Shown: positions 2,680 through 33,743, numbered from the stretch's first letter. The stretch: 64,000 nucleotides of DNA from a virus (IMGVR_UViG_3300012979_000027:1-64000); one strand, 5' to 3'. Numbers and translations: made by a program. Notes: generated by a model from the letters alone, not told the origin.

Positions 2680-3495
2680 TTAATTATTAACTTGTAAATC
2701 TATATCTTTATTTTGTGGGTTATCAACAGTAATACCGACCTGTTCAACCGTTTCATGCGAAGATACACTATTAGTATTTCTAGTTGTTTCAGTAATAAAA
2801 AAACCTGTCATAATAACTGCCCAAGTTAAACATATAAAAACCAAAGGCAATAAAATTCCAATAACAGTCTTATCTCGCGGAATTCCTCGACATCTATCCT
2901 CAAGATGATTAATCTTTATTTTCAAAGCGTCAGTAAGAGATTCATAATAATCTTTAGCTCTCTTAGAATCTTTGATAGTTTTTTTAGTAGAATCCCACAC
3001 TGATTTTTCTACCCATACTAAATCAGGCTTATGAAGCTTATCTTTTTCCTCGCGTAACTTAAGAATTACTTCCTGATAAAAGAACATCGAAAAGCGTTCT
3101 TCAAGAGATGCACATTTAGATAAAAAGTCACAAACTGAAGGAAAATCAACCTTTTTTACATATTCCTTATATTCGTTACATATAGTAAAATCTATACTTT
3201 TACCCCAAATATACGGTTTTTTCGAAAGACATTGCCAAATTGCTTTAGTAACCGGACCAAATCTTGCATCATCTATTTCAATAAAATGAAGAGCAAAATT
3301 TACAAGTTCAGGCGAAGATTGAAAAAATGCTAAAAAATGTCGAGCTGTTGGTTTTGTCCAAAGTGAGTCTCCATTGTAATCTACAACAAACGGGTCACCG
3401 TTAGTCCATTTAATATAGGCATTCGCTATAATAGCACCGAGTTTATCATTTGATGTTTTATTTTCATCAAATGTATCATCAGAAAATACAATCAT
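2680..3495 (-). CDS. Membrane-anchored hypothetical protein
   Basis: 271-aa ORF, TM helix, DNPQNKDI tail. Confidence 0.8.
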   Translation of the reverse strand: MIVFSDDTFDENKTSNDKLGAIIANAYIKWTNGDPFVVDYNGDSLWTKPTARHFLAFFQSSPELVNFALHFIEIDDARFGPVTKAIWQCLSKKPYIWGKSIDFTICNEYKEYVKKVDFPSVCDFLSKCASLEERFSMFFYQEVILKLREEKDKLHKPDLVWVEKSVWDSTKKTIKDSKRAKDYYESLTDALKIKINHLEDRCRGIPRDKTVIGILLPLVFICLTWAVIMTGFFITETTRNTNSVSSHETVEQVGITVDNPQNKDIDLQVNN

Positions 3496-30899: not shown

Positions 30900-31982
30900 T
30901 TACTCTTGTTCTGAATAACCACAAAGTTTTCTAAGGGCTTTTATGGAACGTCTTTTAGACCCCATTCTAAAGTGAGGTAATTTATCCTCATCTTTGTTTT
31001 GTAAAGAGCAGCGAAGATATTTACCATCTTTACGTTTAACTCTGTTAGAAAATAATTGATTATTTTCAGCAAACCAATATCCTTCAAATCCAGGCACAGG
31101 TTTAGCACAACTTTTTACAAATGATTCATCTACTAAATCTTTATTAGCCGGCCTACCATAAGAACCTGCACAGGATTGAGAGCAAAACTTTAACTTAGTT
31201 TTTACTTCATGGTCTCGCTCATATTCTTTACCACACTTGGAACAGGTATAGATGAATTTTGGTTTGTACCCATCAAAGAGGGTTTGATAATTGTTTACTT
31301 TACCTTTATGATAAGTGCCATATTTAGAATCCACATAATCCATCATTGGTTCTAAATCTTCAATTGTAAGAATCTGAATACCTTCGGGAACAGCTGCAGC
31401 CTTTGCGTATACTAATGAAGTTGTATAACCTTTGATTTCTACTAGCTTTCCTTCTACGGTATAATCCGGAAGATATGTATGTTTTTTACCTTCAAAGATA
31501 TAAGGATAACGTTTAGTGTTACGCTCGATTGCTATATTATGGTCTTTGCAATAAATCCAATAAACAAGCTCATAGGTTGAACCGCAAAAATCACCTTTCC
31601 AATAACCCGATTTAGAACGGCCTGAGCCTTCGCGATAACCGCCACAACGAGAATACAACCCATTCTCTCGATTTTTCTGAACACTTAAAATACGCCTGCA
31701 TTCATCCGAACAAGTCTGCCTCATTCGTTTTTCCCAGGGAATCGGATTATTACATATAGGGCAAATCTTAGGTGATTTCAAATAATTCTCATATACTGGA
31801 ATCTTTCCGCCTTTGTTTGTATCCATTCCCTTCAATATTTTGGAAACTTTAGCATTTATTTCTTTTCGTTTTGCTGCAGTAGAATACGCCCTAGCACATT
31901 CTCTGGAACAAAAAGGAGATTCGACAGTTTTCGCCCAATTTCCAAAATACTCTTTATGGCAATGTTTACAAATCTTTTTCAC
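30900..31982 (-). CDS. Putative homing endonuclease (zinc fingers plus PD-(D/E)xK domain)
   Basis: Several CxxC/FCS motifs; STYE, YLPDY, VEIKG; inserted in the tRNA cluster. Confidence 0.75.
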   Translation of the reverse strand: MKKICKHCHKEYFGNWAKTVESPFCSRECARAYSTAAKRKEINAKVSKILKGMDTNKGGKIPVYENYLKSPKICPICNNPIPWEKRMRQTCSDECRRILSVQKNRENGLYSRCGGYREGSGRSKSGYWKGDFCGSTYELVYWIYCKDHNIAIERNTKRYPYIFEGKKHTYLPDYTVEGKLVEIKGYTTSLVYAKAAAVPEGIQILTIEDLEPMMDYVDSKYGTYHKGKVNNYQTLFDGYKPKFIYTCSKCGKEYERDHEVKTKLKFCSQSCAGSYGRPANKDLVDESFVKSCAKPVPGFEGYWFAENNQLFSNRVKRKDGKYLRCSLQNKDEDKLPHFRMGSKRRSIKALRKLCGYSEQE

Positions 31983-32310: not shown

Positions 32311-32487
32311 AACAAAAATGTCCGGTTCCTAGAGGAACCGGCTCTATTTAGCGGAACACTTCCTCCCTTACTGGATTATCCGCTGCGATTTAGAAAGATG
32401 TTCAACCGACTGAGCTACAGCCCCTTATATATTTTTGCACCGCTGAGATTATTACGTTTCGCGACCCGTACTCAGTTGATGACTTAT

Positions 32488-32576: not shown

Positions 32577-32648
32577 AGGCTCCGCACGGTACCGCCCCGT
32601 GTTTCTCGGGTTACAAATCCGACGTAATGACTTTTATACTACAGAGCC
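32577..32648 (-). tRNA. tRNA-Thr(TGT), atypical T-loop GGCGGTA
   Basis: TCGGA-TTTGTAA-CCCGA. Confidence 0.75.
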
Positions 32649-32649
32649 A

Positions 32650-33395
32650 GGAACTGCGAACGAATCCGCACGAGTTCTACGACCTTCCGTACGCATAAGT
32701 TCGGCTCGAATGTGTGAGCTGATTAGACTCTTCCGTAGATGGACGCCGGCGACATTCTGAACGCCGTGAGGTTCCGTGTATCAGTCCCACGGTGGCGGTT
32801 TCTAGGGCTCACCTCCATTTACCAATGTGCCCCGAGCTGGCTTCTAGTCAACTCAATAGCTGAGTTAACCTAAAGTCTTCCAGCAAACTATCTAGCCTCG
32901 ATTTCTACATCTAAGACCCTCCGGACCTTCCACATTGCTTTGCAACCGGCTAGACTAATCCTTGCAAAGTTCAGAAGTTAATCAGGCTTCTGTATGTGTT
33001 TAATTTGGAATGTGGTTGATAAGACCTGCCAATTTATTATGGGAGTTAGGCTCTCCCCTCTTAGCGCCATTCCAAAGCACCTCACGAATGGCCCGCTTCG
33101 TCCATTCGTACCGATATTAGTTTTCCTCTGGCCGCCTCGGGTGGGCACCGCTCCGGTGTGTGGGAGCGTTTGGTCTGATACGGAAACCGGAGTCGTATCA
33201 CATCATGAGCCGTTATCAAGTGGCTACTCCCTCCCGATGCATTACACATCGTGGCTACTGGCCTGCTACATATTGCAGCTTTACACCCTGATGCGCATAG
33301 ATTATCATGTCACAAGACTATGGTATACAATGCAGCCTCGTTCGATAAGCTCTTCCAGGACTCCCAGAAGGTTCTGCGGGGTGGACCATCGTGAA
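32650..33395 (-). ncRNA. Candidate large structured ncRNA (one ~750 nt or two ~350 nt)
   Basis: GC-rich, dense hairpins, no credible ORF, flanked by tRNAs. Confidence 0.6.
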
Positions 33396-33399
33396 AAGA

Positions 33400-33480
33400 T
33401 TGCGGAAGGCAGAGTTGAACTGCTGGAAGGGGTGGCTTATGAGACCACTGAGGCTACCCTGCCTCTGAACCTCCTCCGCG
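33400..33480 (-). tRNA. tRNA-Met(CAT), initiator-like with enlarged D region
   Basis: C1:A72 mismatch; GTGGT-CTCATAA-GCCAC. Confidence 0.7.
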
Positions 33481-33487
33481 ATTTGAG

Positions 33488-33559
33488 CTCGGGTGGTTGG
33501 GGTCGAACCAACGACCTAGTGATTAACAGTCACCCGCTCTTCCACTGAGCTACACCCGA
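33488..33559 (-). tRNA. tRNA-Asn(GTT)
   Basis: GTGA-CTGTTAA-TCAC, canonical arms. Confidence 0.9.
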
Positions 33560-33743
33560 ATTATCTTTTAACAATCACACTACTTTCAAAGTTCTTCACC
33601 CGCAAGCGACTTTATGACAGCCGCTTTTGGGTGCCGCCGTTGAGAGGCGATTTTGATATATTTATCAGCAGTTGTTGCTGATTACCTTTTTATTTTAGTC
33701 AAGTTCTGAATTATTTTTAAGTATCTTCAGAACTTGACTTTTA

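Follow-up and report, generated by a model that had tools for sequence, protein, structure and literature searches.

The question raised by this locus is what a GC-rich interval of ~750 nucleotides (nt), lying between two tRNAs and without a credible open reading frame (ORF), encodes in a T4-like phage. The locus belongs to a 208-kb IMG/VR virus (IMGVR_UViG_3300012979_000027), whose first 64 kb form the window, that is, the whole stretch of 64,000 nt analyzed here. An original prediction had read the interval as a structured RNA, perhaps of a new class, that matched neither GOLLD nor ROOL, RNase P RNA or transfer-messenger RNA (tmRNA), and both Rfam searches and comparative tests support that reading. 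We conclude from the comparison of related sequences that positions 33399 to 32649 on the minus strand are probably (roughly 75%) the gene for a member of an uncatalogued family of large structured RNAs in gut T4-like phages. This family is best read as new within a known kind, the large ornate RNAs of phage tRNA islands.

Homologues, coding potential and covariation

Homologues of the element were found at about 25 loci, on contigs of related T4-like phages from gut and rumen metagenomes. The 101-amino-acid (aa) protein encoded just upstream had 29 relatives (60-96% identity) in metagenome assemblies, and the contigs for eight of them carried the RNA element. A search of JGI metagenomes with an invariant 19-mer yielded four further contigs with the element, and a two-part motif search of genome collections yielded two more, L025 (JAFQOW010000041.1, 238.7 kb) and L026 (JAZSCN010000019.1, 30 kb). 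The element was 617-784 nt long with pairwise identities of 61-98%, and every locus had tRNA(CAU), the RNA and tRNA-Thr(UGU) in that order, with the RNA in tRNA orientation. Both L025 and L026 are phage-like contigs, binned in a goat-colon Lachnospiraceae metagenome-assembled genome (MAG) and an Oscillospiraceae MAG, respectively; this binning is either an error or a hint of gut Firmicutes hosts, which would be unusual for T4-like phages.

The distribution was narrow. In a phage collection, blastn and megablast searches with the region and its 10-kb surroundings recovered the tRNA-Asn only; scans of IMG/VR with two neighboring proteins and two RNA motifs returned no relatives, and a capsid-protein search of IMG/VR returned a single relative, 10 kb long and without the island. 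A survey of 150 other genomes from the bacterial family to which L025's MAG belongs, made with R1, a covariance model of the core of the RNA's first domain (domain A), turned up no copy. As far as searched, the RNA is confined to this phage clade and does not occur in prophages at large. Within the 208-kb genome, R1 and R2, the corresponding model of the second domain (domain B), detected a single copy.

The element is non-coding. No conserved ORF was present, since the longest stop-free runs switched strand and frame between members, and the A core alignment contained 1-nt indels, among them the loss of one nt from each strand of helix H10 at paired positions; the inconsistent stop-free runs and the indels in the core both argue against translation. 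The G+C content of the element was ~50%, compared with 38% for the genome (30-40% over most of its length). The ORF, G+C and homologue evidence thus confirmed that ~750 nt between two tRNAs are non-coding, with two amendments to the extent and flanks first proposed: the element is indeed flanked by tRNAs, yet it runs from 33399 to 32649 with the minus strand as the functional one, and the upstream "tRNA" is aberrant. A plus-strand ORF of 184 aa (32994-33548) was rejected, as it overlaps a tRNA and is not conserved.

To assess the structure, 16 loci were placed in a structural alignment, in which the alignments of the A core and the B core are named A4 and A5, respectively. Pairing partners slid by 1-3 columns served as a control, along with 500 shuffles per structure. 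In the A core, 98.5% of the pairings at 34 pairs were standard (31-49% when slid), and 9 pairs had changed on both sides. The whole of domain A gave 98.1% standard over 63 pairs (37-45% when slid; 10 pairs changed on both sides), and domain B gave 98.2% over 52 pairs (33-37% when slid; 22 pairs changed on both sides). Two-sided changes thus occurred in 32 modelled pairs over domains A and B. No more than 3 of the 500 shuffles matched the observed percentage paired, the count of two-sided changes, the number of cells changed or the covariation score. The count of further pair types set the structures apart less clearly: 0, 9 and 101 of 500 shuffles reached it for the whole of domain A, the core of A and domain B, respectively. 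Alifold reported 13 and 25 pairs with compensatory changes.

These shuffle counts are not probabilities, because the sequences are related and many changes split just two or three clades. The case for the structure is therefore made by the slid controls and by independent compensations within clades: helix H7 had five pair types at one position, B2 had five covarying pairs, and B4 and B5 showed clade-specific compensations. Realignment of B4 and B5 with the covariance model left a 1-nt difference in register between clades, and these helices were judged clade by clade. Invariant G-U pairs were seen in all rows (for example, UG:14 at several positions); on the opposite strand each would be an A-C mismatch, which identifies the minus strand, the same as that of the tRNAs, as the functional strand. 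The original prediction had proposed that homologues be collected and examined for covariation; homologues exist, and compensatory changes are abundant.

Conservation was unevenly distributed along the element. Invariant columns made up 72 of 119 in the A core and 59 of 138 in the B core, while the peripheral modules could not be aligned. Invariant blocks, with runs of up to 22 nt, alternated with modules that were swapped, deleted or unalignable, and this mosaic suggests recombination between phages.

Two domains and the linker between them

The element consists of two self-closed domains, A and B, separated by an AU-rich linker (Table 1); an AT-rich break that had been noticed near 32995-33003 proved to be real and corresponds to this linker. 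From its 5' side, domain A comprises H2, which encloses hairpin H3 and an optional hairpin, followed by the variable hairpin H5, the long-range helix H6, the core and a variable arm region. The optional hairpin in H2 was missing from L015, L021, L022, L024, L025 and L026. Within the core, the H7 hairpin has an invariant loop GUAAU, H8 is formed by GGGAGU and GCUCCC, the H9 hairpin carries an invariant 10-nt loop, ACUUGAUAAC, and the H10 hairpin carries an 11-nt loop, ACUCCGGUUUC. In the core of domain B, helix X crosses B4 (GAGGU/ACCUC) and is followed by B5-B8, including hairpins B5 and B6; the loop of B6, UUCAGAAUGU, is invariant, and that of B8 is CUAAUCA. Two look-alikes were rejected: GGGAGUCCUGG, considered as CR-I of RNase P RNA, is an ordinary hairpin loop, and a candidate group II domain V near the 3' end is the long irregular hairpin B9, with a variable tip, and not a 34-nt domain V.

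The hairpins named in the original prediction fared differently. TGATACG/CGTATCA corresponds to H10 and CAGAAG/CTTCTG to B1, and in both covariation keeps the pairing. The hairpin ACGAATGG/CCATTCGT exists and covaries within its clade, but is limited to that one clade, and TTTGGAATG/CATTCCAAA likewise exists in one clade only; GTTAACTCA/TGAGTTGAC does form a hairpin, but an optional and variable one. CGCTCC/GGAGCG was not upheld as a conserved pairing: the partner of GCUCCC is GGGAGU in every member, and one clade has lost GGAGCG.

Four tertiary pairings are also proposed from the alignments. They are supported, but less firmly than the helices: PK1-PK3 would join a loop to a strand, and PK4 would join two loops. 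Among PK1-PK4, a clean compensatory change was seen in PK3 alone, where L022 has GAAUGA/UCAUUC. In PK1, variation was limited to A or G opposite U, and the six counted pairs never varied; PK2 changed to G-U wobble only, with no compensatory change. A possible seventh pair of PK4 varied among C-G, U-G and U-A. The pairings of PK1, PK2 and PK4 could equally link separate copies of the RNA.

Whether the two domains act as one molecule bears directly on what the gene produces. We lean toward domains A and B remaining on one molecule and not being split at the linker. In all loci of sufficient length, the A core preceded the B core and each occurred once (R1 and R2: 23 and 21 matches, 100-164 bits), and no tRNA, promoter-like site or terminator-like site lies between the domains. 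GOLLD, too, consists of two regions plus a variable linker able to hold a tRNA. The alternative, which is less probable but still deserves serious weight, is that A (~395 nt) and B (~345 nt) are two independent stable RNAs, encoded by adjacent genes of the tRNA operon and cut apart in the linker. Each domain is self-closing, and a column scan for covarying pairs linking A to B gave nothing credible, as candidates such as CGGCUC/GAGCCG and UUCCA/UGGAA fell apart on inspection. Moreover, it is precisely the linker that is interrupted in L003, by an AT-rich insertion of 514 nt, so the domains tolerate that separation; the insertion encodes a 149-aa ORF that had no Pfam or PHROG match. T4 provides a precedent, with two small stable RNAs, rnaC and rnaD, side by side in its tRNA island after tRNA-Arg.

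Comparison with known RNA families

To compare the element with known families, Rfam 15 (4227 families) was searched at gathering thresholds and at E ≤ 10. No family matched the element at either level; at E ≤ 10 the outcome was the same whether 1.5 kb or 771 nt were searched, the latter with lax filters, and four divergent homologous loci (L010, L015, L021 and L022) were likewise without a match. The cmscan comparison with Rfam that had been suggested at the outset therefore gave no match even at this permissive level. Full-text literature searches returned no description of this RNA.

A highly divergent member of GOLLD or ROOL that the Rfam models fail to see is very improbable. The resemblance in setting is considerable: GOLLD and ROOL share with this RNA the phage tRNA islands, the rumen or gut habitat, the size, the pseudoknots and a variable linker, and one studied GOLLD sits downstream of tRNA-Met. 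However, neither the GOLLD model (RF02032; 416 positions, conserved 3' region, gathering score 150 bits) nor the ROOL model (RF03087; 574 positions, gathering score 99.1 bits) had a match at E ≤ 10 anywhere in the 208-kb phage genome, and the four divergent homologues were equally silent. As a positive control, the ROOL model detected a true ROOL with 358 bits in a genome from the bacterial family of L025's MAG; in the same run it was silent on the MAG (G001) that holds the L025 copy. Conversely, with filters off, R1 and R2 gave only noise on the true ROOL locus (≤3 bits within ROOL, ≤11 bits anywhere).

GOLLD and ROOL also differ from this RNA in conservation and range. GOLLD resembles this RNA in being large (~800 nt), carried by phages and prophages near tRNA islands and rich in pseudoknots, and its linker can hold tRNAs as that of L003 holds an ORF. 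In GOLLD, however, a conserved 3' region accompanies a poorly conserved 5' region, whereas here both domain cores are conserved; the GOLLD model matches this RNA in neither sequence nor structure, and the known carriers are gut T4-like phages of one narrow clade. ROOL is likewise rumen-derived and large (~580 nt), with multistem junctions, pseudoknots and a poorly conserved internal linker, and is often found in phages or prophages near tRNAs. As described, it has ~10 highly conserved nucleotides, a small number beside the invariant columns of the A core; the search of 150 genomes from the bacterial family that yielded the true ROOL did not find this RNA, and no match was obtained in either direction. 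T4 rnaC and rnaD (species 1 and 2) are also stable RNAs in the tRNA island of a T4-type phage, in tRNA orientation, directly abutting a tRNA and with a homing-endonuclease gene as neighbor. Their lengths are 139 and 119 nt, compared with ~395 and ~345 nt for the domains here, and R1 and R2, with filters off, had no match on rnaC/rnaD (2909-3172 of the T4 tRNA island, L030) and reached ≤7 bits anywhere in it.

There is equally little to recommend a known ribozyme type in disguise, whether an RNase P-like RNA, a tmRNA in two pieces or what is left of a group I or II intron. H1, H6 and PK1 do resemble P1, P2 and P4 of RNase P RNA in their nesting, but the element lacks the CR-I to CR-V sequences that are conserved in RNase P, and when 771 nt were searched with lax filters, none of the Rfam models for RNase P, tmRNA and introns matched at E ≤ 10; a search with the group-II-D1D4-1 model (RF01998) gave no match either. 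With its threshold lowered to 80%, ARAGORN predicted a permuted tmRNA in 2 of the 16 members, and the tag peptides of the two were unrelated; at 90% and at the default threshold it made no such call. The ORF of the L003 insertion occupies a loop-like place and is reminiscent of intron-encoded ones, yet complete, separate tRNAs flank the element in all members, and there are therefore no exons.

Finally, a non-functional spacer, consisting of decayed tRNA genes or of hitch-hiking sequence in a recombination-prone island, might be imagined from the mosaic island rich in homing-endonuclease ORFs and the aberrant tRNAs on both sides in the window, but it is scarcely tenable given invariant runs of up to 22 nt beside unalignable modules, more than 30 pairs with compensatory changes, and no tRNA-like match on the minus strand inside 32649-33399 (Rfam tRNA at E ≤ 10; ARAGORN at 80% threshold). 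The sole ARAGORN call inside the element was a low-grade plus-strand "tRNA-Ala".

The tRNA island and the proposed role of the RNA

The phage encodes a T4-type major capsid protein (Pfam Gp23) with only ~31% identity to cyanophage and pelagiphage capsids. The window contains 16 scattered tRNA genes, every one on the minus strand, and the RNA element sits in the densest island. Read along that strand, the island consists of a promoter-like site, tRNA-Asn, the tRNA(CAU)-like gene, the RNA element, tRNA-Thr(UGU) and a tRNA-like gene with an 8-nt anticodon loop (Table 1). The sigma-70-like site is a candidate for the start of the RNA-bearing transcript, judged by its match to the consensus.

The tRNA(CAU)-like gene is likely a processing signal for the 5' end of the RNA. 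A homologue was found upstream of the RNA in all members, with a gap of 0-3 nt between the tRNA end and the RNA, and its anticodon loop, CUCAUAA, was invariant across them. The window copy was not detected by the Rfam tRNA model, and its D-like stem is 5 bp long. In several relatives this tRNA is 89-91 nt long with a long variable arm, a class-II-like form that is odd for a CAU tRNA. On the 3' side, the tRNA-Thr(UGU) of the window has a non-canonical T loop and scored ~38 bits, against 57-70 bits in four scored relatives. That both flanking tRNAs of the window are aberrant is consistent with a role there mainly as processing signals.

Further features lie beyond tRNA-Thr. The gene with the 8-nt anticodon loop was kept in relatives shortly 3' of tRNA-Thr and may decode four-base codons or be a tRNA-like RNA with no decoding role. 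On its 3' side, a stretch of ~145 nt had no ORF and no tRNA call and ends in a perfect 8-bp GC-rich hairpin with a terminator score on both strands; it may be another small RNA or the end of the RNA-bearing transcription unit. Nuclease-type and zinc-finger ORFs between the tRNA genes (HNH-type, DUF559/NUMOD3 type and zf-FCS) differed in kind and position among phages, and the zf-FCS zinc-finger ORF had no nuclease match. The island is thus a mosaic hot spot of mobile-looking ORFs, like that of T4 with segB.

Table 1. Positions of the RNA element, its parts and its neighbors; numbers refer to the window unless a related locus is named
Feature	Position	Strand	Remarks
Whole element	32649..33399	-	751-nt non-coding RNA region; full-length homology in 16 aligned loci
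Domain A	33005..33399	-	~395 nt; closed by H1; holds H2, H3, H5-H10 and two proposed pseudoknots
Helix H1	33385-33388 with 33013-33016	-	UGGU with ACCA; joins 5' and 3' ends of domain A
Optional hairpin module in H2	33300..33349	-	~50 nt; present in 10/16 aligned members, cleanly absent from 6
Domain A core	33149..33266	-	H7, H8, H9, H10; alignment A4; R1 = 136 bits
PK1 (proposed)	33213..33219 with 33016..33022	-	H9 loop UUGAUAA with UUAUCAA (strand between H6 and H1); 16/16 complementary
PK2 (proposed)	33186..33191 with 33152-33157	-	H10 loop UCCGGU with ACCGGA; 100% pairable
AU-rich linker	32993..33003	-	Between domains A and B; 14-25 nt long among members
Linker insertion	L003:8313-8826		514 nt
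Domain B	32649..32992	-	~345 nt; hairpins B1, B2, variable middle, knotted core, terminal hairpin B9
Domain B core	32699..32835	-	Alignment A5; R2 = 164 bits; holds B4-B8
B6 hairpin	32747-32766	-	
B8	32716-32730	-	
PK3 (proposed)	32752..32757 with 32708-32713	-	B6 loop GAAUGU with ACAUUC; pairable in all members
PK4 (proposed)	32979..32984 with 32720-32725	-	B1 loop UGAUUA kissing B8 loop UAAUCA; invariant, complementary in all members
Terminal hairpin B9	32658-32702	-	Long; variable tip; 40-nt extension in two clades
Promoter-like site, sigma-70-like	33560..33589	-	TTGAAA, 18 nt, GATAAT; consensus match alone; directly upstream of tRNA-Asn
tRNA-Asn	33487..33559	-	
tRNA(CAU)-like gene	33400..33477	-	Upstream of RNA; aberrant D arm; ARAGORN at relaxed threshold only
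Long-arm tRNA(CAU) examples	L016:7415-7505; L015:8124-8215; L003:7835-7925; L022:3837-3927		
tRNA-Thr(UGU)	32577..32648	-	Downstream of RNA; Rfam tRNA 38.4 bits; tRNA-Thr 3' of RNA in every locus
tRNA-like gene, 8-nt anticodon loop	32487-32565	-	ARAGORN anticodon "gtga"
Same, in relatives	L018:8664-8742; L005:7534-7612		"gtga"; "gcga"
Stretch 3' of 8-nt-loop gene	32322-32486	-	
GC-rich hairpin	32322-32341		
Inter-tRNA ORF site, window	30900-31982	-	
Inter-tRNA ORF sites, relatives	L006:5941-6507; L018:6938-7654		
Inter-tRNA ORF site, relative	L010:7252-7893	-	

From this arrangement a route to the mature RNA can be proposed, following established tRNA biology. The RNA would be transcribed within a tRNA precursor, from the promoter upstream of tRNA-Asn, and host tRNA-processing enzymes would free it: an RNase P cut at the 5' end of tRNA-Thr would generate its 3' end, and 3' trimming of tRNA(CAU) would generate its 5' end. 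The freed RNA would then accumulate as a stable, compact species acting in trans during infection. The density of invariant nucleotides in loops and junctions points to a specific tertiary fold and to a conserved partner or activity.

How such a species would act can be suggested by analogy. ROOL and GOLLD form nanocages. The mode of action that we tentatively put forward, at somewhat less than even odds, is a self-contained architecture like that of GOLLD and ROOL, in which the RNA would serve in a scaffold or assembly, possibly in multiple copies, or as the RNA core of a particle. Considerably more doubtful is an RNA machine of a new kind, either an RNA-only multimer held together by inter-copy loops (UUGAUAA/UUAUCAA, UCCGGU/ACCGGA and UGAUUA/UAAUCA) or a new ribozyme acting on the unusual tRNAs of the phage; the latter is conceivable because domain A has a P1/P2/P4-like knot and adjoins aberrant tRNAs. 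A role as regulator of a neighboring gene is unlikely.

Several points weigh against the reading of this locus as the gene for a member of a new RNA family, or against parts of it. The single-sequence fold was marginally better than shuffles (z = -2.2 for the minus strand, -0.1 for the plus strand), and with so modest a difference the strong evidence is comparative. The family is narrow (~25 contigs), so limited divergence could account for some of the invariance, and many of the counted changes are inherited and not independent. In PK1, PK2 and PK4, which lack compensatory variation, the sequences allow the pairings but do not prove them. The separation tolerated in L003 weakens the picture of one molecule. 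The functional part is argued by analogy with GOLLD and ROOL, whose own function is unexplained.

Very large, knotted RNAs are rare in bacteria and phages, where they comprise the rRNAs, group II introns, RNase P, tmRNA, OLE, GOLLD, ROOL and raiA, and each of these has either proved to be a machine or stays a puzzle. The RNA described here offers a compact, highly conserved two-domain target for cryo-electron microscopy and biochemistry, and since its carrier is a lytic T4-like phage and not a prophage, it could help explain what large RNAs do for phages. A further unrelated family in the niche of GOLLD and ROOL would show that phage tRNA islands repeatedly breed large RNAs.
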